Positions 21,174 to 39,400 of a DNA stretch of 64,000 nucleotides are shown here, piece by piece. This DNA is from Desulfobacterales bacterium. GTDB lineage: Bacteria; Desulfobacterota; Desulfobacteria; Desulfobacterales; JAFDDL01. The notes below the pieces were generated by a model. That model was not told the origin of the DNA. It saw only the letters and a list, made by a program, of their open reading frames with translations, and ran no database searches. The position numbers and the translations under genes were made by a program. The stretch is from assembly GCA_963677545.2 (NCBI GenBank), contig CAXXKH010000045.1, positions 167,864 through 231,863 of the forward strand, in the 5' to 3' direction. Every line of letters begins with the position of its first letter. Positions within the stretch are counted from its first letter, which is position 1.

Positions 21174-22988
21174 TTGTCAAAAAAGCCAACATATCAAGAA
21201 TTGCTAAATCGGATTAAAAATTTAGAACAAAATCAGGCCGAACTTGAAAAATCAGACAATTACCTGACGAAATTATTTTCTATGCTGTTCGACATGGTTT
21301 TCATCATAGATTTGAAAACAGACTGTTTTATCAAGGCAAATAACACCGTCAACAAAACACTCGGTTATTCGGCGAACGAACTCGTTGGAAAATCAGTTCA
21401 TTATTTCATCCATCCCGATGACTTACAGGCCACTATTGCAGTATTAGAAAACAAACTAAAAAAAGGCATCGAGATAATAAATCTTGAAACCCGATATTTA
21501 TGTAAAAACGGCGAGTATCGATGGCTAAGTTGGACGGCACACCCAAATATAGAAGAGGAAATTGCTTATACTGTTGCCAGAGATATTACTGAATTAAAAG
21601 ATATAAAAAATAAAATCCAGATTAGTGAAAAAAAATATAGGGGGCTTTTCAATTCGTCAAATGAGGGGATCTGTCTTCACGAATTGATATACAAAGACAA
21701 CCATCCTGTTGATTATCGTATTCTTGATGCCAATCCAAAATACGAAAAGATGACTGAGATTAAAAGGGAGGATGCAATAGGTGCTCTTGCATCTGATCTC
21801 TACAAAACCGGAAAGGCTCCTTATTTGGATCAATACGCTGAAGTAGTCAAGACAGGGGAACCATCTTCCTTTGAAAACTATTTCCCACCTATGGATAAAC
21901 ACTTTCTGATATCTATTTTTTCACCCGCCCCACATCAATTTGCCACTGTTTTCCAAGACATAAGTAATCGGAAACATATCGAAAGAGCATTGATGGAAAG
22001 TGAAAATCGGTACAAAAGCCTCTTTCAAAACAACCATGCTGTGATGCTACTCATTGATCCTGAAAATGGGGAAATAATAGATGCCAATCCCGCTGCTCTC
22101 ACTTATTATGGATATCGGTTCAATGAGCTAATCGGAAAAAAAATATATGATATCAACACACTGACAGAAGCTGAAATATATATAGAAATGAATAGGGCCA
22201 GGAAAGAGGTCCGAAATATTTCTTATTATCGTCATCGCCTTGCAGATGGAGATATCCGCGATGTTGAAATATATAGCGGGCCGATTCTCATCCATAGTAA
22301 ACAATTATTATTTTCCATAATCCACGATATCACCGAGCGCAAAAAGGTTGAAGATGCGCTGAAGGATGAAATCTGGCAGCGACGGATTTTGGTGGCACAA
22401 TCCAGAGATGGAATCGTAGTCATCGACAATAACGGAGGCGTTGTGGAGGCCAACCAAAAATACGCAGACATGCTTGGATATTCTCTGAGTGATCTTTTTC
22501 ATCTTCATATCTGGGACTGGGATAGTCAATATACAAAGGAAGAACTGCTTCAAAAAATATGCACCATAGGCGAAGCAGGAGACCACCATAAAACACGTCA
22601 CCGCCGTAAGGACGGGAGTATGATTGAGGTGGAAATCAGTTCCAACGCGGCCTTCTTCGGGGAGAAAAAACTCATATTCTGTGTGTGCCGGGATATCACC
22701 GAACGGAAGCATGCCGAAGAAGAGCGGGAAAAACTGATAAAGGAACTGCAAAATGCCCTGGCAGAAATCAACACTCTGCGCGGGATTCTCCCAATATGTT
22801 CTTCCTGCAAAAAGATCCGGGACGATAAGGGATACTGGAATCAGATCGAGACATACATACACAAGCATTCCTTGGCGCAATTCAGCCATGGGATTTGTCC
22901 CGACTGCGCGAAAAAACTTTATGGAGACCTGTACGAAGAGATTCCCCCATTGCAGAACGCAAATAACACTGAGGAGGATGGATCTTGA
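21174..22988 (+). CDS. multi-PAS domain protein with a C-terminal Cys/His-rich module
   Basis: 604 aa, TTG start 8 nt after AGGAGG. It has several PAS repeats and a C-terminus ILPICSSCKKIRDDKGYW....HGICPDC. No kinase or cyclase domain is present. Confidence 0.8.
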   Translation: MSKKPTYQELLNRIKNLEQNQAELEKSDNYLTKLFSMLFDMVFIIDLKTDCFIKANNTVNKTLGYSANELVGKSVHYFIHPDDLQATIAVLENKLKKGIEIINLETRYLCKNGEYRWLSWTAHPNIEEEIAYTVARDITELKDIKNKIQISEKKYRGLFNSSNEGICLHELIYKDNHPVDYRILDANPKYEKMTEIKREDAIGALASDLYKTGKAPYLDQYAEVVKTGEPSSFENYFPPMDKHFLISIFSPAPHQFATVFQDISNRKHIERALMESENRYKSLFQNNHAVMLLIDPENGEIIDANPAALTYYGYRFNELIGKKIYDINTLTEAEIYIEMNRARKEVRNISYYRHRLADGDIRDVEIYSGPILIHSKQLLFSIIHDITERKKVEDALKDEIWQRRILVAQSRDGIVVIDNNGGVVEANQKYADMLGYSLSDLFHLHIWDWDSQYTKEELLQKICTIGEAGDHHKTRHRRKDGSMIEVEISSNAAFFGEKKLIFCVCRDITERKHAEEEREKLIKELQNALAEINTLRGILPICSSCKKIRDDKGYWNQIETYIHKHSLAQFSHGICPDCAKKLYGDLYEEIPPLQNANNTEEDGS

Positions 22989-23583
22989 TGGTCATTAATA
23001 GTTTTATTAGTATTAACTAATAGTTAATTAAGGATATAAATCAATATCAAGGATTTTTACTGAAAAAATGCGCTTTTTTTTAGACAGAAAATTTTTCATG
23101 ATTTGATTTTTGCTTAAATTAGTCAAGCGGCCCATACTGTATCATCACAATATTCTGTTTTAGCATGCAAAACAGCAAATCAAAGTGTCTTATATTTGGT
23201 GGCCAAATCCCATCTCAATAGATTACACACACTGAAATCCTTTTAACTTATTTACTGCCGTGGCTATGAAATGAATGTAATAGGGCTTATGAAATTGATT
23301 TCCCATATCTATCCAAATCATATAATATCTCCATGAAAGGAAATGCAATAACAAACTGTATTTATTCATGTATTACACCTATGCTCTAAACTTGCATGAT
23401 ATTTGCTTTTAATTACTAAATTGGAATTCGCCTTTCATTGTTTTTCCTGAAAAAAACAACTGAATACATCTGATTAATTTAAAAAAAAGGCCGTTGCCTC
23501 TCCGATTGAACCGGTGCAATGATTTGTTTTTCTTGCGGTAATATTTATGGATTGTTCTCTCTGCTGTTCAGAGGTGTTCCCAG

Positions 23584-25743
23584 ATGAAGAAATACGCTTT
23601 CCTGTTTTGTTCAGTACCAATTGGAATCACTTTTTTTGGTATAATGTTTACTCTTATTCGAACATTCTATTACACGGCATTTCCATTATTACAGGAATAT
23701 ATTTTCCCATTGTTATTAGGTACTTTCTTTGGAGCAGGTATAGGATTGTGGCGAATCCAGACTAATGAAAAAAATGAAAGGCTTGAAATAACTGCCTTTG
23801 AATTGAGCATTGCTAACACAGAGCTTAAAAGAAAGAATCAAAAGCTGGAAAAGGTCCAGGTTAAACTGCACAGCCTTCTTGACAATATCATCGATTTTGT
23901 GTGGCTTAAGGATGTCGATGGCGTTTATCTGTCATGCAATCCCAGGGTTATACAATTTTTCGGAGCAAAAGAATCAGAAATTGTCGGACGAACCGATTAT
24001 GATTTTGTTCCCAGAGAATTGGCAGATTTCTTCCGCCAAATGGATAAAGAAGCCATAGATGCTGATATACCGCAAAAAAATAAGGAATGGATTACGATGG
24101 CATCTGATGGCAGCCGTATCTTGCTTGAAACTGTAATAAAACCTATTAAGGACAAAAATGGAAAGATTATAGGAATTCTTGGAATTGGACGCGACATCAC
24201 TGCCCTATACAACGCCGAAACAACATCGCACGATGCAAAAGAAAATTTCCAGGCTATCTTCGAGAACATGGCTTTGGGGTGCTGTATAGATGAAATTATC
24301 TATGATGAAACTGGATGTGCAATTGATTATCGGGTTCTTGATGTAAATCCAGCCTATGAGAAATTGATAGGAATAAGCAGGACTCAAGCAGCCGGGTCAC
24401 TTGCTTCTGCTCTTTACGGCTATGGCACAGCACCCAATATTGATATTTACGGCAAAATTGATGAAACCGGAGAGCCTGTTACATTTAAAGCCTTTTTCCC
24501 ACCAACAAAAAAGCATCTGCTTATTACAGCTTCTCGAGTTACAAAAGGCAGATTCTGTACATTATTCTCGGACATCACAGAACAGATCAACTTAGAGGGG
24601 CAGTTGCAGCAGGCCCAAAAGATGGAATCTGTCGGGCGATTAGCAGGAGGTGTTGCACATGATTTTAATAATATGCTTGGAGTTATTCTCGGTCATGCTG
24701 AATTAGCCACGAATAAAATAGATCCTGATGATAAGCTCTATTCTCATCTGGAGGTAATAATTGACGCCTCCCAACGCTCTTCTGAAATCATTAAGCAATT
24801 GCTTGCTTTTGCCAGAAAGCAGACCATTAATCCGAAGATCATCAATATTAATTATAATGTGAAAAAGATGCTTAAAATGCTCCAACGCCTTATCGGAGAG
24901 AATATAGTTCTATTATACGAACCAAGAAAAGAACTGCACTCTGTCAAGATAGACCCTTCGCAGCTTGACCAAATTCTAGCCAATCTTTGTGTTAATGCAA
25001 AGGACGCTATTTCCGGCACGGGCAGAATAACTATCAAGACTGATAATGTTGTCCTTGATGAAACATTCTGTTCCAATAACCTTGGTTCAGTGCCAGGTAA
25101 ATACGTGCTTCTTGAAGTCTGTGATGACGGTTGTGGCATTGACAGTGAAACCATCAGCAAGATTTTTGAACCTTTTTATACAACAAAAGAAGCAGCGAAA
25201 GGTACAGGCCTTGGACTTTCTACTGTGTATGGCATTGTCAAACAGAATAATGGCTTTATATATGTTCAGAGCAAAATAGGGCAAGGGACAGCTTTCAATA
25301 TTTACTTCCCACAAAATATAGGAAAAACCACAAAATCAGAATCCACGAAAACAAATAAAATCCGATACAGTAGTGGAGAGACTGTACTGCTGGTTGAAGA
25401 CGAGCGGATTAATCTTGAAATGTATAGAGCAATTTTAGAAGAATTGGGGTATAATGTATTAACAGCCCGCAAACCGACTGATGCCCTGAAGATAGCTAAT
25501 AGCCATAGAGGAGATATTGACTTACTGATTACTGATGTCATTATGCCGGAAATGAACGGCAATGAATTATGTGCCCAACTTAACAATATATTTCCAAATA
25601 TAAAAACACTTTTTATGTCCGGTTACACAGACAATATAATTGCACATCAGGGCGTGCTTGAAGAAGGTGTAAATTTTATCCAAAAACCTTTTTTAACACA
25701 TGAATTCTCAATTAAAATCAGAGATGTCTTGGATAAAGGATAG
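23584..25743 (+). CDS. hybrid sensor histidine kinase / response regulator with PAS domains
   Basis: 719 aa: N-terminal TM segments, two PAS regions, H-box VAHDFNNML, HATPase (GTGLGLS), and a C-terminal receiver (LLITDVIMPEMNG). Confidence 0.9.
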   Translation: MKKYAFLFCSVPIGITFFGIMFTLIRTFYYTAFPLLQEYIFPLLLGTFFGAGIGLWRIQTNEKNERLEITAFELSIANTELKRKNQKLEKVQVKLHSLLDNIIDFVWLKDVDGVYLSCNPRVIQFFGAKESEIVGRTDYDFVPRELADFFRQMDKEAIDADIPQKNKEWITMASDGSRILLETVIKPIKDKNGKIIGILGIGRDITALYNAETTSHDAKENFQAIFENMALGCCIDEIIYDETGCAIDYRVLDVNPAYEKLIGISRTQAAGSLASALYGYGTAPNIDIYGKIDETGEPVTFKAFFPPTKKHLLITASRVTKGRFCTLFSDITEQINLEGQLQQAQKMESVGRLAGGVAHDFNNMLGVILGHAELATNKIDPDDKLYSHLEVIIDASQRSSEIIKQLLAFARKQTINPKIININYNVKKMLKMLQRLIGENIVLLYEPRKELHSVKIDPSQLDQILANLCVNAKDAISGTGRITIKTDNVVLDETFCSNNLGSVPGKYVLLEVCDDGCGIDSETISKIFEPFYTTKEAAKGTGLGLSTVYGIVKQNNGFIYVQSKIGQGTAFNIYFPQNIGKTTKSESTKTNKIRYSSGETVLLVEDERINLEMYRAILEELGYNVLTARKPTDALKIANSHRGDIDLLITDVIMPEMNGNELCAQLNNIFPNIKTLFMSGYTDNIIAHQGVLEEGVNFIQKPFLTHEFSIKIRDVLDKG

Positions 25744-26087
25744 GATTTTTCAAGATAAATTTAATGTGTAGATTAAAATATTGACAATTCTGCCAATAAT
25801 TACATGAACATGATGTATAAGCGGCAGTCTTATCTTGAAAAAAGGATGTATACGAAAAAATCGATTTAAAATGTGACACCCATATTTCTCAAAAACAAAA
25901 AACGTATAGAAGCTGTGATGTTACTATATTTTGTTGCTCTTATGATAGTTTCTCTTATTGAAAGATCCATTCGAATGAAAATGGAGAAAAAAAGGGTGTA
26001 GAAACTATCAATTCTTCCCCAAGGGATGAACACTGAAAAGCCAACATGGAATAACATAAGATACTTTTCGAAACATCCACTTGGCAG

Positions 26088-27564
26088 TCAATGTCATAAA
26101 GTTAACGGCAAGGCTTGTAATTCATGTAGTGCTCACGTTTACTAACTTTGTGTTTCCGTTTGAATTTTCGTCCTGGCCGAACGGGTTCGGTTGCCGCTGA
26201 AAATAATTCATGAAGGCCTTGGATTATTTTTACTACAATTTTGCGGGGCCTTTCAAAAAGCAAAAAGAGCGTATCTTTGGATTTTGAAAACACCTGCGTC
26301 ATGTTTAATTGATATTCATACTTTTTTTCTTTGCTTTCGCACTCTACAGACACCTGTGCTGGAGAAGAGAGAACAACAGCAAGATTTTTTGCAAGCACCT
26401 TTGAATGAAAATCCTGATAAACGGACAACTCGGATTGGCCCGAGAAATTGCCGACTTCGACACGCTCTTTCATGAAAAGGTAATCAACTTCTACCGGCCA
26501 ACGCTTGTGATATAGGTCTTTGAAAATTTCTTTTGGATATTTCTTTTTATCGGTAAGCGAAGTGATTAGAACTTCAATTTCGCCTGAATCGAGTTCAACC
26601 CGTATTAAGCGCAAGTGTAGTGGCGCAACATCCAAGCCCATCTCATTGCATTCTTTGATGGATTGATATGATGCATCAATATCAACAAAATCTTGATCAA
26701 GGCCGGATTCGATGAAGGTTTGAACAATCTTCCATTTATTGGAGATTCTGGCACAAAAATTACCGCCTTGAGATATAATGAGGTTGAAAACCCAGTAAGC
26801 CGGATAACCACGGTCCAATAAAAGAAGGTCGTTTGGGAGCAAGTTGAGCATATGATCTCGCAATAGTTCTCTTTCGCCGACATTGTATGGCTTTATGAAT
26901 GCCTCGATTGTGACTTTATTCAAAACATCAAATAATTGTGAAACACGAGCCATTGGGCATGCAGGTCCGTTCTTGGGTTTCATTACGCCAAAATGTTCTC
27001 GTATTTCTTGGTATTTAAAAAGTTTTAAAGTTGATCCATCTATTGCCAGTAAATTAAATCCATGCCATTTTTTGACGGTTTTGTAGTTGTTATAGAAAAA
27101 CTCAAGCAAGTGGCGGTTGAACTCTATAAATGCGGAATACTTGAGTTTCCTGCGTGCCAGTGAAAGAGCCATTTTGGTAACCAAGGCGACAGGGACATCT
27201 AATCGGAATGAAGCTTTAAAAAAGTGATCCAATTCGTCTTGGTATGATCCTTTAATGAAGTTTATGAAAAAGAGGAAAAGTGTTTGAAACGGCAGAGTTC
27301 GGTTTCGTGTAAAATCTTTTTCAGATTTTTTGTGCCGATTGACAAAGTCTTTTGAGTGAAGAATCTTCTTGAGATAATCAACAGTTTTGGCACATATCTT
27401 GGAAAGCAGGCTCCGTGCCAACATTGCTTTGCTTTTGAAGCGTTTCGGACATTTATTTCTCCTTTACGAAATGAATAATGCACGGTTAAAACTGGTGTCA
27501 GTATAGCATAATAAGCTAAAATATCAATAAAATTTAACTACTGCCGTTAACTTTATGACATTGA
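26088..27564 (-). mobile_element. IS4-family insertion sequence (1477 bp)
   Basis: Perfect 23-bp terminal inverted repeats (26088-26110 tcaatgtcataaagttaacggca; 27542-27564). It is flanked by an 8-bp target duplication cttggcag (26080-26087 and 27565-27572). Confidence 0.9.
26102..27424 (-). CDS. IS4-family DDE transposase
   Basis: 440 aa. LLAIDGSTLKL, LLLLDRGYPAYW and YHKRWPVEVDYLFMK (Y-R-E-K type motif). Confidence 0.85.
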   Translation of the reverse strand: MLARSLLSKICAKTVDYLKKILHSKDFVNRHKKSEKDFTRNRTLPFQTLFLFFINFIKGSYQDELDHFFKASFRLDVPVALVTKMALSLARRKLKYSAFIEFNRHLLEFFYNNYKTVKKWHGFNLLAIDGSTLKLFKYQEIREHFGVMKPKNGPACPMARVSQLFDVLNKVTIEAFIKPYNVGERELLRDHMLNLLPNDLLLLDRGYPAYWVFNLIISQGGNFCARISNKWKIVQTFIESGLDQDFVDIDASYQSIKECNEMGLDVAPLHLRLIRVELDSGEIEVLITSLTDKKKYPKEIFKDLYHKRWPVEVDYLFMKERVEVGNFSGQSELSVYQDFHSKVLAKNLAVVLSSPAQVSVECESKEKKYEYQLNMTQVFSKSKDTLFLLFERPRKIVVKIIQGLHELFSAATEPVRPGRKFKRKHKVSKREHYMNYKPCR

Positions 27565-27708
27565 CTTGGCAGTTGTTTTAAAAGACAACAAGGTTCCGAT
27601 ACAAGCTACGGTACAAGGGCTTTCCGACATACATAAAAAGATGTGTGACTTGATAGAAGTGCCAATGTCAACATATCAGAACCTTAAAGACATGTGGTAG
27701 TTGTTCGT

Positions 27709-27760
27709 GGGTTTTGGGACGTTGTTGACTAATTGGACTTATGCTGGTTTCTCTTAATTA
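27709..27760 (+). repeat. solo end of the HUH-transposase element (IR plus last ~30 nt of its ORF)
   Basis: gggttttgggacgttgttgactaattggacttatgctggtttctcttaatta matches 44384-44430, 42499-42550 and 28343-28393. Confidence 0.85.
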
Positions 27761-27835
27761 TGTATGTTTGACACCCCTCGGATTCGTGAGATAGATAGGA
27801 GATAGTTGCTTATTCTTCTCCGTCTCGCCCCAATT

Positions 27836-28228
27836 TTACCAAACGGTTTTTACATGGGAATATTTTAGGATTTTTTCATCTTTTGTAATAAGAGTTAAAT
27901 TGTTTACCCTAGCCGTTGCAACTATCAGCCTATCTACCGGATCTTTATGAAAATCTCCTGGCAAATTGCATACATCAATGGCTATTTGGGGGTTAATTTC
28001 AAGCACCCTTATGCCTGTTTTATCCAGCGCATATGAAAGCCACTCATCCGACGTGATCTTCATCTCAATTTTTTTTCTGCAAGCCATCATTGCAAATTCC
28101 CAAATTGAAATAGATGCAATGGCTCGTTGATCCGGAGTGGTTTTTTTAATTAATCGCGTTGCTCCCCTGGATAATTTTTCTGGTTCGCTCAAGCTCCACC
28201 ACCAGACATGCGTATCCAATAATATCAT
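27836..28228 (-). CDS. vapC: PIN-domain toxin (VapC-like), copy 1
   Basis: 130 aa from MILLDTHVWWW (TGATG overlap with the antitoxin stop). Acidic residues follow the PIN pattern (LLDTH, ..E.., ..D.., DPVDRLIVATA). Confidence 0.85.
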   Translation of the reverse strand: MILLDTHVWWWSLSEPEKLSRGATRLIKKTTPDQRAIASISIWEFAMMACRKKIEMKITSDEWLSYALDKTGIRVLEINPQIAIDVCNLPGDFHKDPVDRLIVATARVNNLTLITKDEKILKYSHVKTVW

Positions 28229-28340
28229 CAGACATTCTCCCAATCATCGCTATCAACAACAGGCTCAGTCAAATCCCCAACCGTGCGGCCTACACCGACA
28301 AGAGCCCCGATCAACGGATCTTTTGAGTTATCGGAATCGC
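28228..28340 (-). pseudogene. 5-prime-truncated Phd/YefM-type antitoxin gene (duplication junction)
   Basis: It encodes only the C-terminal ...DSDNSKDPLIGALVGVGRTVGDLTEPVVDSDDWENV. Homology to the full copy (31570-31751) stops at 28340, where the solo-end repeat begins. Confidence 0.75.
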
Positions 28341-28342
28341 AT

Positions 28343-28393
28343 GGGTTTTGGGACGTTGTTGACTAATTGGACTTATGCTGGTTTCTCTTAATT
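28343..28393 (+). repeat. solo end of the HUH-transposase element, second copy
   Basis: Same ~51-bp sequence as 27709-27760. Confidence 0.85.
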
Positions 28394-28522
28394 ATGTATG
28401 TTCAGGGTGATTTCGTTCTGTCATAAAAACAATAACAAATCGGAAAATTAGAGAAACTAATGGACAAAAGCCTTCGGATCGGCTATATGATTCACTATTG
28501 ATCATCTTATTCGGAGGTTGCA

Positions 28523-29593
28523 GTGTTCAATCTATTGGAAATCGATGTTCGTCCAGTTGTTACGAGTGAAGACCGCCTTTTTCAAAAATTGATGCAGGCG
28601 CATCACTATCTGGGCGCTCTGCCAAAAATCAGCGAAACCATTCGATATGTTGCTACGTTCGACAGCAATTGGATCGCCCTTCTTAGTTTCAGTGCTGCAG
28701 CTTTAAAATGCTCGGTTCGGGACCGTTGGATCGGATGGAAATCTCGCCATCAATATGATCGGCTCAAGCTGATTGCAAACAATAGTCGATTTTTGATCCT
28801 GCCTGAATGGCATTTACCGAACCTGGCCTCCCGTGTTTTGTCATTGTGCAGGAAGAGATTGCAAAGTGATTGGCAACGCACCTTTGGCCACCCTCTATTA
28901 CTGCTGGAGACATTTGTCGATCCCTTGCGCTTTCGAGGCACTATCTACAAAGCGGACAATTGGATCTACTTAGGCGATACCAAGGGTTTCCGGAGAACCC
29001 GGTATGGTTACAGCGCTACACCAAATTCTCCGAAAATGGTTTTCGTCAAATCCTTGATGCCTCGTGCCGCCATGTTGTTGTCTCAATCCGTGCTTAACCC
29101 ATCTTATCAAACCGGAGGCTCTAAAATTATGCTTACAGCTGACCAGATGCAGTCTTTACCTTACTTTTTTGAAAACATTCCCGATCCACGCCGAGCCCAG
29201 GGAAGACGTCATAAACTGCCTACGGTTTTGGCCATCGCCGCCGCGGCAACATTGTGCGGAATGCACGGATACCGGGCCATCTCGGATTGGGCTAAAAACC
29301 TTAGCCAAAGGGCCCGTCGGCGATTTGGCTGTCGCTATTACAAAGGCCGATTTGTTGTCCCCAGCCTGAGTATTATCCGTGACGTACTCATCCGTGTCGA
29401 TCCAACACATCTTGATGGTGCACTACAGCGTTGGAATAAGACGTATGCAAAACAGGACGAAAGCTTGGCAATTGACGGCAAAACAATGTGTAACGCCATT
29501 GATGACGAGGGACGTCAAATCCATATCATGAGCGCAATCGGTCATCAGAGCAAAACCTGCCACACCCAAAAAAAGTGGGTTTCCTCAATGTAG
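28523..29593 (+). CDS. ISAs1-like transposase, upstream frame (DUF4338-like N-domain plus N-terminal part of the DDE domain)
   Basis: 356 aa. HYLG...RYVA...WIALLSFSAAAL...RDRWIGW...NNSRFLILP...ETFVD (DUF4338-like), then FENIPDPRRAQGRRHKLPTVLAIAAAATLCG and LAIDGKT (ISAs1 pattern). Confidence 0.75.
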   Translation: MFNLLEIDVRPVVTSEDRLFQKLMQAHHYLGALPKISETIRYVATFDSNWIALLSFSAAALKCSVRDRWIGWKSRHQYDRLKLIANNSRFLILPEWHLPNLASRVLSLCRKRLQSDWQRTFGHPLLLLETFVDPLRFRGTIYKADNWIYLGDTKGFRRTRYGYSATPNSPKMVFVKSLMPRAAMLLSQSVLNPSYQTGGSKIMLTADQMQSLPYFFENIPDPRRAQGRRHKLPTVLAIAAAATLCGMHGYRAISDWAKNLSQRARRRFGCRYYKGRFVVPSLSIIRDVLIRVDPTHLDGALQRWNKTYAKQDESLAIDGKTMCNAIDDEGRQIHIMSAIGHQSKTCHTQKKWVSSM

Positions 29594-30303
29594 GCGACGA
29601 TGGCCTAAAGCGAACAAATGAAATCAATACCGCCATTCCAATGTTGGATGCCATCGACATTACGGGGAAAACCATTACAACCGATGCCCTGTTGACCCAA
29701 CGAAAAATCGCTTCTTATTTATTCGAACAGCGCCAAGCCCATTATCACTTCACCGTTAAAAACAATCACCCCGGACTTTATCAAGACATCGCATTGTACT
29801 TTGAAAACCGCCGGGAACCGGATTTTACACTCTGCGATCCTCCCGTCCATGGCCGCATCGAAGTTCGTAAAATCTGGACAACAACGGAACTCAACAACTT
29901 CCTTAACTTCCCTCACGTCGGTCAGGCTTTTGTCATCCAACGCGAGTCAACAAATAAAAAGACCGGAAAATATTCTTGCGAAGTTGCGTACGGCATTACA
30001 GACAAAACCCCGATGCAAGCTGATCCTCGGAACATCCTTGAAACAAATCGCGGTCACTGGTGTATTGAAAACTCATGCCATTATATTATCGATTGGAATT
30101 ACAATGAAGATCGAAGCCGTATACGCATCGGCCATGGCCCCGAAAACGTCACCCGCTTACGTCGTTTTGCCGTCGGTCTAATTAAATCCAAAGGCGTCCG
30201 CTCCGTTCCCCAAAAAATGGAACAGCTAAACCGCAATGTTCGTCTTGTTTTCGACTATCTGAGGATGACTAAAAATTCTGCTGTTTCTACTTGGCGTCTT
30301 TAG
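29575..30303 (+). CDS. ISAs1-like transposase, downstream (-1) frame, C-terminal part of the DDE domain
   Basis: 242 aa. TNEINTAIPMLDAIDITGKTITTDALLTQRKIA and HWCIENSCHYIIDWNYNEDRSRIR are typical of the ISAs1 family. It is reached from the upstream frame by a -1 shift at A_AAA_AAG (29569-29575). Confidence 0.75.
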   Translation: MGFLNVGDDGLKRTNEINTAIPMLDAIDITGKTITTDALLTQRKIASYLFEQRQAHYHFTVKNNHPGLYQDIALYFENRREPDFTLCDPPVHGRIEVRKIWTTTELNNFLNFPHVGQAFVIQRESTNKKTGKYSCEVAYGITDKTPMQADPRNILETNRGHWCIENSCHYIIDWNYNEDRSRIRIGHGPENVTRLRRFAVGLIKSKGVRSVPQKMEQLNRNVRLVFDYLRMTKNSAVSTWRL

Positions 30304-30394
30304 AACAAATTTACCGTGATGTATGTTTGACACCCCTCGGATTCGTGAGATAGATAGGAGATAGTTGCTTATTCTTCTCCGTCTCGCCCCAATT

Positions 30395-30787
30395 TTACCA
30401 AACGGTTTTTACATGGGAATATTTTAGGATTTTTTCATCTTTTGTAATAAGAGTTAAATTGTTTACCCTAGCCGTTGCAACTATCAGCCTATCTACCGGA
30501 TCTTTATGAAAATCTCCTGGCAAATTGCACACATCAATGGCTATTTTGGAGTTAATTTCAAACACCCTTATGCCTGTTTTATCCAGCGCATATGAAAGCC
30601 ACTCATCCGGTGTGATCTTCATCTCAATTTTTTTTCTGCAAGCCATCATTGCAAATTCCCAAATTGAAATAGATGCAATGGCTCGTTGATCCGGAGTGGT
30701 TTTTTTAATTATTCGCATTGCTCCCTTGGATAACTTTTCTGGTTCGCTCAAGCTCCACCACCAGACATGCGTATCCAATAATATCAT
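30395..30787 (-). CDS. vapC: PIN-domain toxin (VapC-like), copy 2
   Basis: Near-identical paralog of 27836-28228, with a few substitutions. Confidence 0.85.
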   Translation of the reverse strand: MILLDTHVWWWSLSEPEKLSKGAMRIIKKTTPDQRAIASISIWEFAMMACRKKIEMKITPDEWLSYALDKTGIRVFEINSKIAIDVCNLPGDFHKDPVDRLIVATARVNNLTLITKDEKILKYSHVKTVW

Positions 30788-31751
30788 CAGACATTCCCCC
30801 AATCATCGCTATCAACAACAGGCTCAGTCAAATCCCCAATAGGGATAGGGACACCTCTCACGGGGTGCCCCTCCCACACCACCGGACATACGGGGCCGTA
30901 TCCGGCGGTTCGGCTGGTCAGAGCAGACATGACTAATACTACTGCCTGCCGGGCTTTATCCAAGCTGAACGCTACCGACATTTCAGCTACCGCTGCAATA
31001 TGCCGGTAAGAACATGCTCTTTGATAGCCATGACCATTTACCCAAGCCATTCGGCCCAGGTACCGTTCGGGCCTTCATCGGGGTGAGGCCTCCGGGTCTA
31101 CTTCTCCCATTTCGGCAGGCCCGGCTCGTTTCCACCGACTAATATGCCCCCTGCTGACTTCTGCCACGTGATCGCCTCCCCTTACGGTTCGGTCAGTCCG
31201 TTAGTGGACATCGTGGCAGATCTCCCGGGGTAAACACATGTCTTTCGGTACACGAATGCCGAGTTTACGGACACACCTTGAGATGGATAGAGGACTTTGC
31301 CTTGAGGTGCAGGCTCGTCCCGGCGTGTGCGCCTCATACTCGGTGGGCGCTTGCGTCACGCCAAAGGCGTGATTCGTCATCCTGTACTTTCGCGGTACCT
31401 CGCCTCGGCAAGGCAGCTTCTTTCCGAAGCATCCCGCTTCTGGCGGGATACTCCGTTGCCATACCGCTACGCCCTTCGCCTCCATCGGGCTGGGCCTAAG
31501 ACTTGCCAAATGCTTGAATATAAGATACATTTGGCGCACTTTTAAGAACATGTGCCGTGCCCGGCACACACCGTGCGGCCTACACCGACAAGAGCCCCAA
31601 TCAACGGATCTTTTGAGTTATCAGAATCGAAATGGGTCAGTTTCGCTACAGGCTTCCCCCGTTTAGTTATTACGATTTCGATATGGCTTTCCTCTATTTG
31701 GTTCAACAATTTAAAGCACTTTGAACGAAATTCAACAGATGATATTCGCAT
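30787..31751 (-). CDS. Phd/YefM-type antitoxin, split gene (exon 1 31570-31751, exon 2 30787-30838)
   Basis: The exons sum to 234 nt, giving 77 aa plus a stop. The spliced product MRISSVEFRSKCFKLLNQIEESHIEIVITKRGKPVAKL...GRTV|GDLTEPVVDSDDWGNV matches the paralog at 28228-28340. Its stop overlaps the vapC start. Confidence 0.7.
30839..31569 (-). mobile_element. ORF-less group II intron (731 nt) inserted in the antitoxin gene, same orientation as the gene
   Basis: The minus strand starts GUGUGCC and ends ...CCCUAU. There is a domain V-like hairpin (ACCGCCGGAUACGG..CCGUAUGUCCGGUGGU with a 2-nt bulge) and a domain VI-like stem with a bulged A 7 nt from the 3-prime end. Several GNRA-type loops are present and no RT ORF. 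Boundaries are defined by the uninterrupted paralog. Confidence 0.7.
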
Positions 31752-31963
31752 GATTTATACCTCCTATTAAGTGTACACATTAACACGTACACATAAAGGA
31801 TTCAACAAATTTCTGAATTATCTTGGACCCGGATTTCTGCAACTGATCATTTTATTTCATCCAGGTCCGAAATCGGGGTGACCGTGATGCTTGCCTTTTC
31901 ACGACAACGATTCATCGAAAACCGGTTGGAGAAGTTAGACCGTCATTAAAACCACTAAAGTCT

Positions 31964-32047
31964 CTTCAGAGCACATAATGATCCCAGTCTGATTTTATTG
32001 CCGCGCTGCGACGGTGACGTCCCGGGATTGATCCGCCTGTTTCGCGG
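31964..32047 (+). repeat. third, partial or diverged copy of the 185-bp repeat (3-prime ~85 nt)
   Basis: cttcagagcacataatgatcccagtctgattttattgccgcgctgcgacggtgacgtcccgggattgatccgcctgtttcgcgg aligns with 10522-10605 and 14906-14988. Confidence 0.8.
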
Positions 32048-32371
32048 TTCGTTTTTCTAAACCCTAAATTTGACCATTTGGAGGGAAAATACCGACATAT
32101 CAGTGGGGTTGAAAAACCTCGAATATCTACGAATAATCAACGGATAGCGGTGCATGAACGTGGCTCGGAATGATTCCTTATAACGCACTTTTCGGTCCCA
32201 AAAACATCGGTTTAAGGCCGAAGAACACCCCTTTTTTAATCTAAACCCGGGCCAGTTGGGCATCTTGCTTGGTCCGGCCCAATTTCACGGTTTCAGACCA
32301 GCTTCCGGAATATTGATTTCCCATCGGGCTACGTCCATCAACACGCTGTCAACCACTTTCGAAAAACCTTC

Positions 32372-32421
32372 TTGACAGTCGGTCATTTGTTTCGTACAAT
32401 TGTTCGTAACAAATGACCGAC
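32372..32421 (+). promoter_or_regulatory. sigma70 promoter with a perfect inverted-repeat operator (probable TetR site)
   Basis: TTGACA (32372-32377), 17-nt spacer, TACAAT (32395-32400). The 14-bp arms gtcggtcatttgtt (32378-32391) and aacaaatgaccgac (32408-32421) bracket the -10 box. Confidence 0.65.
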
Positions 32422-32440
32422 TCGTGTCGAGAGGTGAAAC

Positions 32441-33067
32441 ATGCAAGTGAAATATATAGACCATTTGCCCGTCGGGATGGAGCTTTCCGCGGTGCGTCTC
32501 TATTTAGATGCCCTACGGGATAAGCTCATGCCCATCTTTGGAGATGCCAAACGGGCACTAAATATCCTCTCCCAAAATCTCGCACCGGATCGTTGTCTGA
32601 CGGCCCTGTGTGATCAGAGGCTCGTCGGTGTCTTGGGAATCCAGACAGCCAGGGGCGGATTCCTGAATCCGGCACTCAAATCGCTGACCGCTGAATACGG
32701 ATTGACAGGCGGCTTGCTCAGGCTTGGGCAGTTGCATCTTCTGCACCACAGAACAGGGAACGACGAGTGGTATGTCGATGGGATTGCCGTGGTGGAGGAG
32801 ATGAGAGGTGTGAGTATCGGAACGGGATTGCTCGGTTTTTTTGAAGACATCGCCAGAAAGAAGGGTATCCATAAGCTCTCACTCGAGGTTATGAATACGA
32901 ACCAGAAGGCCAGGGCGCTCTACGAGCGTTTGGGTTTCACCGCAACCAAACAAACCTACCTCTGGCCGTTCAACCGCTTGTGCGGATTCCCTTCCGAATC
33001 AGCTATCGAGATGGTGAAGATGCTTCCATCGCCAGGAGCTTCACTCCCGATCCCGCAGAACACATAG
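32441..33067 (+). CDS. GNAT-family N-acetyltransferase
   Basis: 208 aa. IAVVEEMRGVSIGTGLL...ARALYERLGF is the acetyl-CoA binding motif A pattern. Confidence 0.75.
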   Translation: MQVKYIDHLPVGMELSAVRLYLDALRDKLMPIFGDAKRALNILSQNLAPDRCLTALCDQRLVGVLGIQTARGGFLNPALKSLTAEYGLTGGLLRLGQLHLLHHRTGNDEWYVDGIAVVEEMRGVSIGTGLLGFFEDIARKKGIHKLSLEVMNTNQKARALYERLGFTATKQTYLWPFNRLCGFPSESAIEMVKMLPSPGASLPIPQNT

Positions 33068-33105
33068 GCGTGGAACAACACATATCAAATATCGGAGGAT
33101 TGAAA

Positions 33106-33738
33106 ATGGGAACCCCAAAGGATTCGGAAAAAACACGGGCCAAACTCATTGAAGCCGCTGGTCAACTTTTTGCGGAAAAAGGATTCAACGGGGTCACGGT
33201 CCGGGATATCGCCAAAGCAGCCGATACCCACTTGAGTGCATTGAACTATCATTTCAGAACCAAAGAGGCATTGTATCACGAGGTGCTCATTGAGGCATGC
33301 AAAGCAGACTCTGTTTCCGCTGAAGACAAGGAGTTCTTGTTAAAGTCCGATCCAGGTGAGGCGCTTTTTCTGTTTGTAAAGGAATCCCTGTTGGAATATC
33401 GAAAGCAGACGGCCTCAAATTGGCGACTTGTTTTAGTAGCAAGGGAATGTAGAGAGCCAAGTCATGAGTTTGGTGAAGTATCGAAAGTGTATTTCGAACC
33501 TGAGACAAACTTTTTGGCTAAACTAATAGGCAGGGTCGTAAGAAAGCCATCCGTTGATCATCATGTCCGTTTTGCCGTTATGAGTTTAATTGCCTTGCTT
33601 GAAACGTTTGGGCTTTATAGGCATTTGATCGATGTCGTTTCGCCGGGTCTTGATGATTATTTCAAGAAGAGAAACGCTCTTGCCAAGCATATTGTTCATC
33701 TTGTGATTGAAGCCGCCAATCCATCAACAAGCGAGTAG
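33106..33738 (+). CDS. TetR/AcrR-family transcriptional regulator
   Basis: 210 aa from the ATG at 33106 (GGAGGA RBS). TRAKLIEAAGQLFAEKGFNGVTVRDIAKAADTHLSALNYHF is the TetR N-terminal HTH signature. Confidence 0.9.
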   Translation: MGTPKDSEKTRAKLIEAAGQLFAEKGFNGVTVRDIAKAADTHLSALNYHFRTKEALYHEVLIEACKADSVSAEDKEFLLKSDPGEALFLFVKESLLEYRKQTASNWRLVLVARECREPSHEFGEVSKVYFEPETNFLAKLIGRVVRKPSVDHHVRFAVMSLIALLETFGLYRHLIDVVSPGLDDYFKKRNALAKHIVHLVIEAANPSTSE

Positions 33739-33741
33739 CTA

Positions 33742-35205
33742 ATGGTTACAAAACGGAGCAAAATACAATCTTCTCAAAACACACGATTGGCACTGCTTGC
33801 TGTTATGTTTTTTTGCACGTGTGCTTTCTGTATTTCAGGCTGTACAGCTTTTAGAAAGCCAGTCCCGGCCAAGCTGCCGGAGAATATGCCTTTGTCATGG
33901 ACAGCGGATGTCGACATCGAAAAACTTCCGATTACGGCAAGTTTGGTTGATCTAATAGGCGAGCAACGAGTGTTGCGCCAGCTCGTTGACGAAGCGCCGA
34001 AAAACAATCCGAACCTTAACGCGACAGCTCTTCGCCTGAAATCGGCTGGATACATGCTGACCGGTTCGCGCTCAAAACTGCTGCCACAGGTCAATGCCGA
34101 GTTTTCCAAAGGACGAGACAATCAACAAATTGACACTGAAACAGGTAAGCAAAAGACGTCTGACTCTAATCGACTATCGCTTGGTGTGAGCTGGGAATTG
34201 GATATATGGGGGCGGCTGGCAAATGAACATAAGGCATCGCAACAAACTGTTCTTGCACAGGCATATGATTATCTGCATATCCGTGACGCTCTGGTCGTGC
34301 GTGTGATTCAAGCATGGATAGAACAGATTGCAATTCGACGTTCCCTCGACATTGAAAAAGAACGCGTGGCGGTTTTACAGAGCATCGAAACAGTCCTGAT
34401 CGAACGTTACAAAAGTGGTATCGGAAACCTGGATGAACTGTCTGTGGCCAAAAGCAGGAAAGAAATCGCCAAAGCGGATCTTAGTGCACGCAACGCGGCG
34501 CTGCTAAGATCAATTCGAAAACTGGAAGTTCTGCTTGGTCGGTATCCAAAAGGAGATGTTGTGTCTGGTATTGACCTGCCGGAGGTAAAGTCTCCACCGG
34601 TCTATATTCCCTCCACCGTACTTCTTAATCGTCCGGATATTCAAGCCGCTCTTGCGCGGGTTGAATCGGCAAGCAACACATCGCGTGCGGCCGATAAAGC
34701 GATCCTTCCCGAATTGCGGATTTCAGGACAGGTCTTTCGGCAAGCTACCAATTTAAATAACCTTGGTGAAACAACATCCTATTGGAGTCTATTGGGGTCA
34801 CTGTTTCAACCTTTGTTTGAGGGTGGAAGAATCGTCAGTGAATCAAAAGCAATGCGCGTAGAGGCAGAGGCATCATTGATGGATTTGTGCGGTGTGGTTT
34901 TGCAGGCCCTGAAGGAAGTCGAAGACGCCTTTGATACCGAGCGTGATTTGGCTGTGCAGAGCCTGGCGCTTGAAATCGCAGTCACTGAATCAGAGACAAG
35001 CAGCCACTACTACGAAGATCGATATCAACAAGGACTGGACACCATCCAGAGTCTGTTAATCGCAAGAGAACAAGAAATGTCCGTTCGAATTCGGCTAAAC
35101 GAGGTCGTAGCTGAGCGTTGGAGCAATCGAATTGATCTGGCCTTAGCATTGGGCGTGGGAATTGATGAACGCCCGGCTATGCCTTTGGGAGATAAGAAGC
35201 CATGA
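33742..35205 (+). CDS. efflux transporter outer-membrane factor (NodT/TolC family lipoprotein)
   Basis: 487 aa with a lipobox-like signal (FCISGC) and two-repeat OMF architecture. It is the first of three efflux genes. Confidence 0.8.
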   Translation: MVTKRSKIQSSQNTRLALLAVMFFCTCAFCISGCTAFRKPVPAKLPENMPLSWTADVDIEKLPITASLVDLIGEQRVLRQLVDEAPKNNPNLNATALRLKSAGYMLTGSRSKLLPQVNAEFSKGRDNQQIDTETGKQKTSDSNRLSLGVSWELDIWGRLANEHKASQQTVLAQAYDYLHIRDALVVRVIQAWIEQIAIRRSLDIEKERVAVLQSIETVLIERYKSGIGNLDELSVAKSRKEIAKADLSARNAALLRSIRKLEVLLGRYPKGDVVSGIDLPEVKSPPVYIPSTVLLNRPDIQAALARVESASNTSRAADKAILPELRISGQVFRQATNLNNLGETTSYWSLLGSLFQPLFEGGRIVSESKAMRVEAEASLMDLCGVVLQALKEVEDAFDTERDLAVQSLALEIAVTESETSSHYYEDRYQQGLDTIQSLLIAREQEMSVRIRLNEVVAERWSNRIDLALALGVGIDERPAMPLGDKKP

Positions 35206-36404
35206 ATTCTCATGATGATAAAATGAACTACCTGAAACGATTTTGTAAAAAATGGAAAAGGCCATTGGTTTTTCTCTGCGTTGCCACGCTGTGCGGCTTA
35301 GTAATATTTGTCGTCCTGTCGTCAGAGCCGGATGAATCCATAACTATCCAAAAGGATGTTATACAGACAAGCGGCATGCCGGTCTCTGTTCGCGTGGTGG
35401 AACCAAAGAGCTATCCAGCAGTTGTCAAATCATTTGGAGAGGTCGTTCCGTTATGGCAAACAATAATAAAGGCCCAGGTGGACGGTCAACTCATCTACCT
35501 ATCTGACAAATTACGGGTTGGCAGCATTGTCAAACAGGGCGAATTGCTTGTCCAGATAGAAAAAAGCGAATTTGAGATGCAGGTGGCTGAAGCAAGAAAT
35601 CGTTTGTCTGCTGCAAAAGTTGTTCTATTGAAGGAACAGCGAGAAGCTGATCAGGCTCGAAAGGATTGGGAACGTTCCAATAATGGAAGCAAACCGGATT
35701 CTCCTCTAGTGTTGCGTACTCCTCAACTCGAAGCGGCTAAAACCGAAGTTGAAGCTGCGCAAACCGCACTCAATCGAGCAGAGGTTCTTTTGCAATACAC
35801 GGATGTCCGTTCTCCCTTCGACGGAGTGATCATGCAAAGCATGGTAAGCCTGAGAGAGACTCTGTTTACTGGAGGGGAAATCGCCACGATTTATGGTTTG
35901 GATACCGTGGAAGTCGGTATTCATCTGGATGAAAAGCAATGGGCCTTGTTGCCTGAGCCGATTGTGGAGGCGAATGTCCGGTTATACACGCCCGGCAGGA
36001 CGTCGAAATCAAATTGGAATGCACAAATTGCGAGGGAAAGCCGCCACCTGGACAGGGAATCACGCCTGCGAACCTTGTTTCTTCAGGTGAAACAACCTTT
36101 GGAGCAAATACCTCCATTGTTACCAGGGTCTTTTGTTCAGGCTGAAATCATCGGCCGCAATATACCGGAACTTGTAAAAATCCCCGAACCGGCACTGACA
36201 AAACAGGGGCTGGTCTGGTTTGTGGATCATAACAATAGTTTGCAGCCAAGGCGTGTTGATCCAGTCTTTTATGGAGAAGGCATCGTCTATATTCGTGTGC
36301 CCGCAGACACAGAAATGCCAATACGCATAGCCGAATCACCCAACACCAGCTTTGTCAGCGGATTAAAAATTAATCCAATCGCGGCAAAGGGGGGTGAGGA
36401 ATAA
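35202..36404 (+). CDS. efflux RND periplasmic adaptor (membrane fusion protein)
   Basis: 400 aa with an N-terminal TM segment, a coiled-coil hairpin (AEARNRLSAAK...LEAAKTEVEAAQTALNRAE) and the YTDVRSPFDGVI lipoyl-like motif. It overlaps its neighbours by 4 nt and 1 nt. Confidence 0.85.
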   Translation: MNSHDDKMNYLKRFCKKWKRPLVFLCVATLCGLVIFVVLSSEPDESITIQKDVIQTSGMPVSVRVVEPKSYPAVVKSFGEVVPLWQTIIKAQVDGQLIYLSDKLRVGSIVKQGELLVQIEKSEFEMQVAEARNRLSAAKVVLLKEQREADQARKDWERSNNGSKPDSPLVLRTPQLEAAKTEVEAAQTALNRAEVLLQYTDVRSPFDGVIMQSMVSLRETLFTGGEIATIYGLDTVEVGIHLDEKQWALLPEPIVEANVRLYTPGRTSKSNWNAQIARESRHLDRESRLRTLFLQVKQPLEQIPPLLPGSFVQAEIIGRNIPELVKIPEPALTKQGLVWFVDHNNSLQPRRVDPVFYGEGIVYIRVPADTEMPIRIAESPNTSFVSGLKINPIAAKGGEE

Positions 36405-39400
36405 TGCATACCTTATCCGCATGGTTTACGCGAAACCCGGTTGCCGCCAACCTCCTCATGCTGCTGGCCCTGATTGCAGGCTTGTTCAGTATTCAATCCA
36501 TTCGTATTGAAGGATTTCCGGCATTGCCGCCCAGTTCAGTTACGATTACAACCTTGTACCCGGGAGCAAGCGCGGAACAGGTGGATCGAGGGATTTCCCG
36601 TAAAATCGAAAAGACGCTTGAGGACATGCCCGGGGTGAAAAAAATATCCTCGTTCTCTGAAGAAGGAACTTCGTCGGTCTGGGTTCAGAAAGTGTCAGGG
36701 TTTGACATGGATCGGTTTCAGAACGAGATCGAATCCCGTGTTAATGCCGTCCCCAGCCTGCCACAGCTTGCTGAGCGCCCCATCATCGCTCGTGATGAGT
36801 TCAATGTGGAAGCCCTTTTGGTGCAGGTTTACGGCGATGTCGATAACCTTACGCCCCAAAAAGTCGCGCGTAATCTCAAGGAAGAGTTACTGGCGAATCC
36901 CAAAATCACCAAGATTACCCCCTTTGGCCTGTTGAATCACGAGATTCGTATCGAGGTCGATGATGCCATGCTTCGTGCCTATGGACTATCGCTCAACGAT
37001 GTTGCCGATGCGATTGAATCGGCTTCTTTGGATTACCGTACCGGAAGCATTGATAGTCGGGCCGGAAAAGTGGTTATTCGGGCAGATCAGAAATCATTCA
37101 GTTACGAAGAATTCGCCTCTATTCCGATGCGCACCCCTGCTGGAGGCACCCGCCTGACAATCAGGGATGTTGCTGAAGTTATTGACGGATTTGAAGAGGA
37201 ACATCGGTTTGCCCGTTTCCAGGGACTGCCTTCTATAGGGATGCTTATCTATACCAGCAAGAAAGGGCATCTCTTCGAGGTCAGCGAAGCGGCGCATGCC
37301 GTTGCTGACGAAATGAGGCCCCAGCTTCCTCAGGGAATGAAGATCGATGTATGGGGGGAAACCAGCATTTACATGAAAGCAAGATTATCTCTGCTGGCGA
37401 CAAACGCCTGCCAGGGGCTTCTGATCGTTTTCGTCCTGCTGGCTCTTTTTCTCAATTTCAGACTGGCCTTCTGGGTGGCCATGGGCATTCCAATATCGCT
37501 GGCCGGAACCCTGGTGCTGATGGGAGATCGTTTTCTCGGATACTCACTCAACGACATCACCACATTTGGCATGATTGTTGTTTTAGGTATTCTGGTCGAT
37601 GATGCGATTGTGGTCGGTGAAAGTGTTTTCGAGGCCAGGGGACAGATTAAAGACCCCATTGAAGGGACCATTCAGGGGGTTCATCGTGTGATAACGGCTA
37701 CCGTATTCGGATGCTTTACTACGGTCGCGGCATTCTTCCCACTGCTGCTTATCAAGAATGACATTGGTAAGATCTTTGCCAGTTTTTCAGTGGTTGTAAT
37801 TGTTTCATTAATAATGTCATTAATAGAAAGCAAGCTGATTCTGCCAGCGCACTTGGCAGCTGTTAGAATAGACACTCGTCCACCTAAAAGATGGTTCTCA
37901 ATATTGTGGCATAAAATACAATCCATTGTCACTCGCGGGCTCACTTCTGTAAACCAAAGCCTCTATCAACCCTTGCTCGGAAAAGCCCTGCGTCATCGCT
38001 ACGCAACATTGATGATTATTTTAACCATCGCTGTTAGCGGATTATCCATGATTTTCAATGGATGGATTCGAACCGTTTTCTTTCCTGAGGTGCCCGGGCA
38101 AATCATTACCGTAAAACTTCAAATGAGAAGCGGTAGCCCACTGAATCTGACCATGGACAACATAAAGGCCATTGAAGAAGCGGCCGAAGCCGTGAACGTC
38201 GAAGCCATGGCTGAATTCCAGAGCGATGAACCACCCATCGCCCGAATCATGATCGCCCTTACAGACCCGTTTAACGCCGAGATTTACGCCGAACTCCAAC
38301 CGGAAGAGCATCGGAAACTTGAAACCATGGAGACCTTGCATCGCTGGCGTGAAAAAGTCGGCACATTGGAAGGCTCCGAAGAACTGAGCTTCAGCGGATC
38401 ATTTGAAACCGGGGGAGGTTTTGTCATCGAACTGGGCGCCCGGGACGATGCCGTTTTACAGGACGCTGTTGGGCGTTTTTCATCTGCTTTAAGTCGACTG
38501 GATGGTATTCACGACATTCGGGATGATCTCAGACAGGGCAGTCCCCAAATCAGGTTGCGCCTGAAGCCTGATGCACAGCATTTGGGGTTGAGCGCTTCCG
38601 ATTTGGCCAGCCAGATTGGTGATGCATTTGGGGGGCTTGAAGTACAGCGCGTTCAACGAGACGCCGACGAGGTGAAAGTGGTTGTCAAATACAAAGAAGA
38701 GAGGCGACGTTATATGCGTGATATCCTCGACACCTACATTCAGACCGCACAGGGAGAGTGGCTGCCACTATCTCTGGTTGCGAGTATTAAGGCTGGATAT
38801 GTTCCCTCCTCCCTGAATCGGCAAAACGGACGGCGGGTGGTACAGGTGCGCGCTTCGTTGGACAAAGAACGTATCAGTCCCAGTGAAGCATTTGAATGGA
38901 TTCAAAAAAACGTATCGCCGGAACTCAGGTCCCTTTACCCGGAACTGACCATTAAAGGAGCTGGAGAACTGGAGGAAGTCGGCGAGATAAAAGGAGGTAT
39001 GATCCGGGCATTAGTCATGATTTTAATCCTGATATACGCTCTTCTGGCCGTTCCTTTGAAATCGTACTGGCAACCGCTGGTGATTATGTCTGTCATCCCC
39101 TTTGGTTTTGTTGGGGCAGTAATAGGCCATTGGATCAACGGACTTCCGCTCAGCATTTTGTCGTTTTTTGGTATGTTGGCGGTAACCGGTGTTGTGGTTA
39201 ATGACAGCCTTGTCATGATGACCCGATTCAACGAGCTTCGTGAAGGAGGCCACGATTTGTGGGAATCATTAGTCATGGCTGGCGGTAGCCGTTTTCGAGC
39301 CATCATTCTCACAACGGTGACAACCGTCTGCGGATTGATGCCTCTGCTTCTGGAAACAAGCGAGCAAGCGCAGTATTTGATACCTGCCGCAGTCTCTCTG

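Follow-up and report, generated by a model that had tools for sequence, protein, structure and literature searches.

An apparent group IIC intron without an open reading frame splits a Phd/YefM antitoxin gene in a Desulfobacterales bacterium

How could an antitoxin still be made from a gene that is interrupted by a ribozyme with no protein of its own? This question is raised by a 64,000-nt stretch of DNA from a Desulfobacterales bacterium (assembly GCA_963677545.2, contig CAXXKH010000045.1, positions 167,864 to 231,863; hereafter the window), in which vapB, the Phd/YefM antitoxin gene of a vapBC toxin–antitoxin module, carries a 731-nt insert. Compared with a paralog in the same window (28228-28346), the insert occupies 30839-31569 on the minus strand, lies in sense orientation to vapB and splits codon 61 after its second base (GT/T). 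Exon 1 (31570-31751, minus strand) consists of 182 nt, comprising codons 1-60 and 2 nt of codon 61, and exon 2 (30787-30838, minus strand) of 52 nt including the stop codon. Joining the two gave a 77-aa open reading frame (ORF), ...GVGRTV/GDLTEPVVDSDDWGNV (the slash marks the junction), in the same frame as the paralog. The predicted spliced product matched PF02604 at 31.5 bits (cut-off 29.8) and TIGR01552 (Phd/YefM), and intact 77-aa homologues with identities of up to 96% aligned gap-free over the exon junction. Intact pairs of a 77-aa and a 130-aa gene were present in L001, L241 and L244. The vapB ATG is preceded by an AGGAGG ribosome-binding site 8 nt upstream, and its stop codon overlaps by one base with the ATG of vapC2 (30395-30787, minus strand), the downstream, coupled gene for a 130-aa PIN-domain toxin (PF01850, 1.2e-13). 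As judged from the DNA, the insert is an ORF-less group II intron within the antitoxin gene, and its removal would restore the reading frame exactly. An earlier sequence-only reading of the window had proposed the extent, sense orientation and GUGUG and AU ends of the insert, together with the exon lengths and the 77-aa product, and all of these were confirmed.

The termini of the insert, GUGUG (31569-31565) and ...CCCUAU (ending at 30839), fit the group II pattern of 5' GUGYG and 3' AY and were invariant over nine aligned family members. On the minus strand, Rfam models RF02001 (group-II-D1D4-3; 31412-31234, 62.5 bits, E 4e-10, gathering threshold (GA) 32) and RF01998 (31195-31070, 36.1 bits, GA 35) both matched above threshold. 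The domain V/VI model RF00029 reached 37 bits, just under its GA of 40 (E 2.5e-5 in a local search), and its match ended exactly at 30839, the 3' splice site. A consensus fold of the window intron and eight ORF-less relatives (RNAalifold) displayed six domains and 206 pairs, 68 of them with compensatory changes, and included a closed domain I, the J2/3 segment AGCAG, domain V, and domain VI with a bulged UA. Domain V (30879-30912, minus strand), whose pairs were conserved or covarying in this fold, is bulged on its 3' strand in the Rfam alignment, with the CGC triad located at intron nt 663-665 (window 30905-30907). Domain VI (30842-30876, minus strand) combines a 4-bp basal helix, the bulged UA and a GNRA-type loop, and the candidate branch A is intron nt 724 (window 30846), the eighth base from the 3' end. 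RF00029 and the consensus fold thus both recovered the domain V-like hairpin and the domain VI stem with a bulged A that the sequence-only reading had described.

We assigned the intron to class IIC from its exon pairings, its domain V and the proteins of its relatives. Class IIC introns recognize the 3' exon by pairing between exon-binding site 3 (EBS3) and intron-binding site 3 (IBS3), as in class IIB, and have no EBS2/IBS2. In the window intron EBS1 is ACCU at nt 262-265 (31305-31308, minus strand), in the terminal loop GC-ACCU-CA; its first three bases (A, C and C) base-pair with GGU at exon positions -1 to -3 (IBS1). Of the 64 distinct family 5' junctions, 41 had a readable loop, and among these the loop sequence tracked the exon end, with AACA facing ...GUU, ACAA facing ...UUGU and ACCU facing ...GGU, the last being the window combination. 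Intron nt 305 (31265, minus strand) is the column covarying best with the +1 base and was complementary to it in 13 of 16 introns, including the window copy, where this A (EBS3) pairs with the U that opens exon 2 (IBS3). For EBS2, no complement to exon positions -7 to -20 lay in an unpaired loop of the window intron and near-identical introns at different sites displayed no second target-linked variable loop in domain I, a result that amounts to absence of evidence in a domain I of ~345 nt. The domain V consensus GAGCCGUAU aligned to CCGCCGGAU in the window (Rfam alignment; triad CGC). The epsilon-prime region reads GUACCGCGAAAGUAC against a consensus of UCUGAAGGAAG, with GCGAAGG in some relatives, and is variant throughout the family; its GCGAAAG stands in place of the class IIC consensus AGGAA. 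In the published definition of the class, the basal stem of domain V has a CGC triad instead of AGC, EBS1-IBS1 comprises only 3-4 bp, and an 11-nt epsilon-prime bulge holds a conserved AGGAA (PMC1702495). The class features of the window intron agree with that definition (PMC1702495, PMC8643678).

The intron-encoded proteins (IEPs) of two relatives, L223 and P0196, are 436-446 aa long, with reverse transcriptase (RT) and GIIM domains and no endonuclease domain. Their best solved relative was the GsI-IIC RT (6AR1), matched over the full length with E values of 3.6e-141 and 3.7e-148, respectively, compared with only ~1e-38 to 1e-42 for LtrA (class IIA; about 1e-41) and the Thermosynechococcus elongatus RT (class IIB). 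Given the CGC triad, EBS1, EBS3 and the failure to find EBS2, the insert is a IIC ribozyme at a site that satisfies both short exon pairings. Its identity as a group IIC intron is in our estimation close to certain, and the class corrects what should be expected: exon pairing is very short, ligation normally benefits from a 5'-exon hairpin, and self-splicing without protein proceeds mostly by hydrolysis and ligates poorly. Other candidate elements were discarded. A candidate EBS1 with a perfect 5-bp exon match at nt 382-386 (ACCGU) belongs to a conserved domain II GNRA hairpin that did not covary with targets, and potential EBS2 sequences such as CACCGA at nt 225 lie within a conserved stem. 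A domain V pattern proved class-wide, the matches listed including Bradyrhizobium, Inquilinus and Thermotalea.

Such introns are not isolated. A metagenome scan with the first 21 intron nucleotides retrieved more than 120 loci, and the relatives found by BLAST were 68-78% identical, some measuring ~700 nt and some ~1.9 kb; the lineage is common in Desulfobacterales-type bacteria and sediment metagenomes. Judged by domain IV length, 12 of 17 scorable loci were ORF-less and 5 were of IEP size, and across the sampled metagenome loci the ORF-less IIC lineage equalled its ORF-bearing relatives in frequency. Domain IV of the window intron is a remnant of ~160 nt (30920-31065, minus strand), in which the first ~103 nt correspond by homology to the 5' part of domain IV and the beginning of the IEP in ORF-bearing relatives (L218, 72% identity across 103 nt; L210, L134 and L223, 79-84% across 43 nt), and the rest of the IEP ORF has been deleted. 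Other ORF-less members share this type of deletion. A second type (L167 and L154) keeps the 3' end of the ORF, indicating two or more losses of the ORF. That ORF-less introns throughout the lineage have kept the 5' region of domain IV suggests that they still make use of a protein partner.

A candidate for such a partner is encoded in the same species. As the sequence-only reading had stated, the insert encodes no RT, and none was encoded anywhere in the 64-kb window by tblastn and Pfam. A profile of the family IEP detected P0196 (436 aa) in at least two copies on a conspecific contig of 7,364,975 bp, which also encodes the NAPRTase of the window at 100% identity; the species is Desulfobacterales-like, with 7.4-Mb assemblies. 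Full-length IEP copies, which the earlier reading had proposed to look for, were therefore present in the conspecific genome and absent from the window. Over nt 1-535 of the window intron, the ribozyme of the P0196 intron shared 83.5% identity with it, making the P0196 intron the closest ORF-bearing relative found. This 7.36-Mb genome further holds an intron of the window's ORF-less subtype (L246, 203-813), which is 85% identical, sits behind a strong hairpin and has the extra hairpins peculiar to the window intron along with the domain IV remnant. Bacterial ORF-less introns live beside related IEP-encoding introns (PMC4424553, PMC2882425), and the presence of the P0196 introns and the L246 copy in one genome matches this pattern. 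The need for a trans-acting maturase that the sequence-only reading had raised is made plausible by P0196 and by the conserved part of domain IV.

Individual family members showed peculiarities of their own. The L246 copy has a different domain II, and is thus a mosaic, and its match stops at ~813, just before an IS200-like Y1 transposase gene. Two ORF-less family introns are arranged head to tail in L133 (3134-4311; Ga0209947_1004586), the second beginning right after the CCCUAU of the first, as if domain VI of the first had been the hairpin target. The ORF-less intron of L200 (2852-3583) contains a 22-nt internal duplication in domain V and is probably inactive. In the window itself, the 10-mer GTGTGCCGGG at 22683 was dismissed as a chance match and not an intron fragment.

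Three empty sites define the insertion, bearing out the empty-site reference on which the sequence-only reading had relied. One is the truncated in-window copy (28228-28346). The second is L001, an unrelated metagenome contig in which the alignment of an intact vapBC passes straight from 31959-31570 to 30839-30355. The third is L244, a 25-kb sister-strain contig that carries a single intact vapBC at the orthologous locus, with one flank matching 19209-27760 at 99.8% identity and the other 31570-43038 at 99.4%, and that has no intron, no insertion sequence (IS) and no second vapC there. The vapC2 DNA was 97.9% identical to the L244 gene. Comparison with L244 also amended the view of the in-window copy. 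It had been called an upstream paralog, and although it is an empty site, it is not a simple duplicate: vapC1 (27836-28228) and the adjoining 3' 113 nt of vapB (28228-28340), both on the minus strand and without an intron, were 99.2% identical to the sister-strain vapBC and from their sequence represent the ancestral segment. This vapB is truncated at 28340/28341 by an ISAs1-like element (28341-30318, plus strand), which lies between the two vapC copies and is absent from L244. A three-way alignment delimited a strain-specific block of ~3.2 kb, from 28341 to ~31631, that holds the ISAs1-like element, vapC2, exon 2 and the intron together with the final ~60 nt of exon 1. The interrupted copy is hence the only full-length vapB at the locus, and vapC1, ~2.5 kb from the second vapC, has no antitoxin gene of its own.

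The explanation that best accommodates these results as a whole, with a probability that we put at roughly 0.7, is that of an ORF-less IIC intron inserted ectopically and served in trans. The intron is a non-autonomous derivative of an IEP-encoding IIC intron that has lost most of its domain IV ORF. It would most likely have originated by reverse splicing, with maturase/RT supplied in trans from full-length relatives in the same genome, in sense orientation into codon 61 of vapB at a site offering only the minimal pairings (IBS1 GGU and IBS3 U) and no upstream DNA hairpin. Such an event would be ectopic retrotransposition, not homing, and would be recent and strain-specific, within the 3.2-kb rearranged block. 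The vapBC message would then carry the intron, and a trans-acting maturase binding the retained domain IV region could promote splicing and so restore the 77-aa frame. The core motifs, ribosome-binding site, frame and both PIN genes are all intact, which argues against decay.

Several findings weigh against this account, among them the target site. Class IIC introns normally insert after hairpins, such as terminators, in intergenic DNA and avoid genes. Relatives of the window intron lie 4-13 nt after strong DNA hairpins (L246, -18.4 kcal/mol, z -4.3; L167, z -5.3; L218, z -4.4; L200, z -3.2). In contrast, the 5' exon in the window folded at -4.9 kcal/mol (z -0.03), and 94 of 200 shuffled sequences folded as well. 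Since a hairpin belongs to the target site and not to the ribozyme, its absence here identifies the insertion as ectopic and is compatible with class IIC. We had also considered homing into a conserved protein motif (V-K/R-W-N/S-D, with GUG.A shared by several 5' exons), which was ruled out because intron removal restored a convincing long ORF in 0 of 15 relatives; the GUG.A likeness more likely reflects recurring structured DNA targets. When the stem-loop of the IIC intron B.h.I1 was removed, the first step remained intact and exon ligation was abolished in vitro (PMC1702495). The lack of a 5'-exon hairpin, together with these data, makes productive splicing doubtful here, and published work on the class would predict poor exon ligation at the vapB site. 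In addition, EBS1-IBS1 forms three of four possible pairs, and the window intron has ~14 private changes at positions invariant in 15 relatives, which are ambiguous because it is also the most divergent family member. The family IEP comes from a conspecific genome and not from the 285,910-bp contig to which the window belongs. Identity to L244 was 97.9% in the vapC2/exon 2 part of the block, compared with 99.2-99.8% for adjoining sequence, which raises the possibility that the intron came in with imported DNA and did not insert in place. In the interrupted vapB, residue 75, an E in 14 of 15 full-length homologues aligned, is replaced by G (E75G), and the conspecific genome encodes a paralogous vapBC (P0150) with the near-identical, toxin-binding C-terminal tail GDLTEPVADSDDWENA. 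Substitution counts of vapB and vapC against L001 and L244 gave too few differences to speak on selection.

Much of this evidence would fit a dead-end insertion, in which the intron landed in vapB, or was recombined into it, at a poor site, the exons are never ligated, vapB is a pseudogene giving only a 69-aa truncated product, and both VapC toxins are neutralized by a paralogous VapB, poorly expressed or decaying, as would be expected where IS elements abound. The missing hairpin, the substitution at a nearly invariant antitoxin residue and the P0150 module all speak for it, as do the largely hydrolytic self-splicing of IIC introns in vitro, with little ligation (PMC4748821), and the heavy rearrangement of a locus in which vapC1 was already orphaned by the ISAs1-like element and an IS4-type transposase lies nearby. 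Yet the core motifs of the ribozyme are preserved, as are its two exon pairings, and neither the frame, the ribosome-binding site nor the vapB-vapC overlap has been touched. Both vapC genes encode full-length PIN domains, and the arrangement is the main haplotype of the 286-kb contig, indicating that cells with two vapC genes and one full-length vapB are viable. We regard a dead end as a contender at somewhat below even odds, and productive splicing in vivo as evenly poised between success and failure. Splicing might also proceed by the ribozyme alone, since its core is intact and the ORF-less C.te.I1 is thought to work without an IEP (PMC4424553). However, IIC introns in vitro react mainly by hydrolysis, under conditions of high Mg2+ and 45-55 C, and ligate their exons poorly (PMC1702495, PMC4748821), the stabilizing hairpin is missing at this site, and the conserved domain IV 5' region suggests a protein partner; maturase-free self-splicing in vivo is highly improbable.

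A further alternative is an artefact of metagenome assembly, in which strain variants were joined chimerically to give the duplicated vapC, the IS and the intron. Several strains were co-assembled in the sample set, L244 being a 25-kb alternative haplotype, and the intron-bearing block differs in divergence from its flanks. Nevertheless, a mis-join would not yield a base-exact insertion at a site that fits EBS1 and EBS3, with removal restoring the frame, and both exon junctions are continuous sequence with homology on either side, so that an artefact is barely credible.

With the trans-served intron as the preferred explanation, its consequence for toxin control is a separate matter. The sequence-only reading had concluded that antitoxin supply, and hence VapC activity, would depend on splicing. 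This overreached, considering that the species has one or more paralogous vapBC modules and that the interrupted copy has the E75G substitution. To judge by its sequence, a paralog of the P0150 type could cross-neutralize VapC or cover for a dead copy, and we consider it unlikely that the cell's supply of VapB truly hinges on this intron. At the far end of this range lies a splicing-gated toxin–antitoxin switch, in which antitoxin synthesis would be conditional on the maturase of mobile IIC introns elsewhere in the genome. In that event the IS-orphaned VapC1 and VapC2 would be held in check only while the family IEP is expressed, and the host would be addicted to a retroelement family or would couple VapC activation to conditions that lower splicing. 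Such gating is possible, though a long shot and not the most likely outcome.

Compared with the IIC introns B.h.I1, O.i.I1 and GsI-IIC, the window intron shares the CGC triad, a 3-4-bp EBS1-IBS1 in a terminal loop, the single-base EBS3-IBS3, the lack of EBS2 and a compact ribozyme. Full-length family members resemble GsI-IIC in having an IEP without an endonuclease domain, and most relatives lie a few bases after a hairpin. Apart from extra peripheral hairpins in domains I and III, the window copy is a member of class IIC that departs from the type in three ways: it is ORF-less, it lies in sense orientation within a coding sequence, and its site has no hairpin. By analogy, it would functionally be most like the trans-served ORF-less introns of T. 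elongatus and Trichodesmium (PMC2882425, PMC12584367). In the IIB1 family of the former, ORF-less and ORF-bearing introns share one genome, with splicing and mobility in trans, and in the latter expression of the genes interrupted by the ORF-less dnaN introns depends on a shared RIR intron maturase (PMC2882425, PMC8643678, PMC12584367). Those introns are cyanobacterial, chloroplast-like IIB elements with long EBS1/EBS2, whereas the window intron belongs to class IIC, resides in a Desulfobacterales-type host and interrupts a toxin–antitoxin component, and its service in trans is a prediction.

Group IIC-attC introns such as S.ma.I2 provide a precedent for IIC introns with a structured DNA target other than a terminator, and several relatives end at ...TTGTT/A or ...GGTT/AGGC, comparable to that group. 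Introns of the attC type insert antisense to cassette genes, into the bottom strand of attC (PMC3001079); in contrast, the window copy is sense and within coding sequence. No attC or integrase was identified at the window copy, and no test was aimed at attC membership. The module itself is like other VapBC systems with a Phd/YefM antitoxin, uninterrupted copies of which are widespread, in that a 77-aa antitoxin gene overlaps through its stop codon the start of a gene for a 130-aa PIN toxin. It differs in that the antitoxin gene is intron-split and a second, orphaned vapC lies 2.5 kb away.

A full-text literature search, of incomplete coverage and hence weak evidence of absence, turned up no published case of an antitoxin gene split by a group II intron and no description of a natural, proliferating ORF-less IIC lineage. 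The locus offers a natural experiment: with help in trans, can a IIC ribozyme that lacks a 5'-exon hairpin splice productively? If the intron is spliced, it would provide a toxin–antitoxin module whose antitoxin depends on a retroelement protein, and gene interruption by IIC introns may be under-counted because annotation simply calls a truncated 69-aa protein; interruptions of the vapB kind could be systematically missed in this way. If it is not spliced, the insertion would be an ordinary gene knock-out in an IS-rich region.

The public record annotates 31542-31751 (minus strand) as a 69-aa protein, P0149 (NCBI, ENA), composed of exon 1 and read-through into the intron, which evidently goes unannotated; this read-through product is on record only once. 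An 87-aa ORF (30787-31050, minus strand) begins in domain IV, stays in frame across domains V and VI, enters exon 2 and ends at the vapB stop codon. In theory it might allow vapC2 to be translationally coupled on unspliced RNA, but it is probably due to chance. In L002 (79-210; ENA ERZ27283987) a 43-aa N-terminal antitoxin fragment, 98% identical, is followed by unrelated DNA; it breaks at about codon 42, close to where the IS cuts copy 1 in the window.

The first ORF of the ISAs1-like element (28523-29593) encodes a DruA-like N-terminal domain (PF14236, 5e-27) and DDE_Tnp_1_assoc, and the second (29575-30303) the DDE part; their overlap of 19 nt indicates a frameshift. A 55-61-bp repeat that forms the left end of this element (28342-28402) recurs at 27708-27768, where it stands alone downstream of vapC1, at 42486-42551 and at 44372-44438, and as a tandem pair in the sister strain (L244, 8495-8618). 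It probably marks recombination points of the local rearrangement. A structured, imperfectly palindromic repeat of ~90 bp occurs at 10518-10605, 14901-14988 and 31960-32047, in copies 88-91% identical. Two of these copies flank a pair of genes, for an AAA_21/AbiEii-like ATPase and a Schlafen/AlbA_2 protein, that appear defence-like, and the third lies just upstream of vapB.

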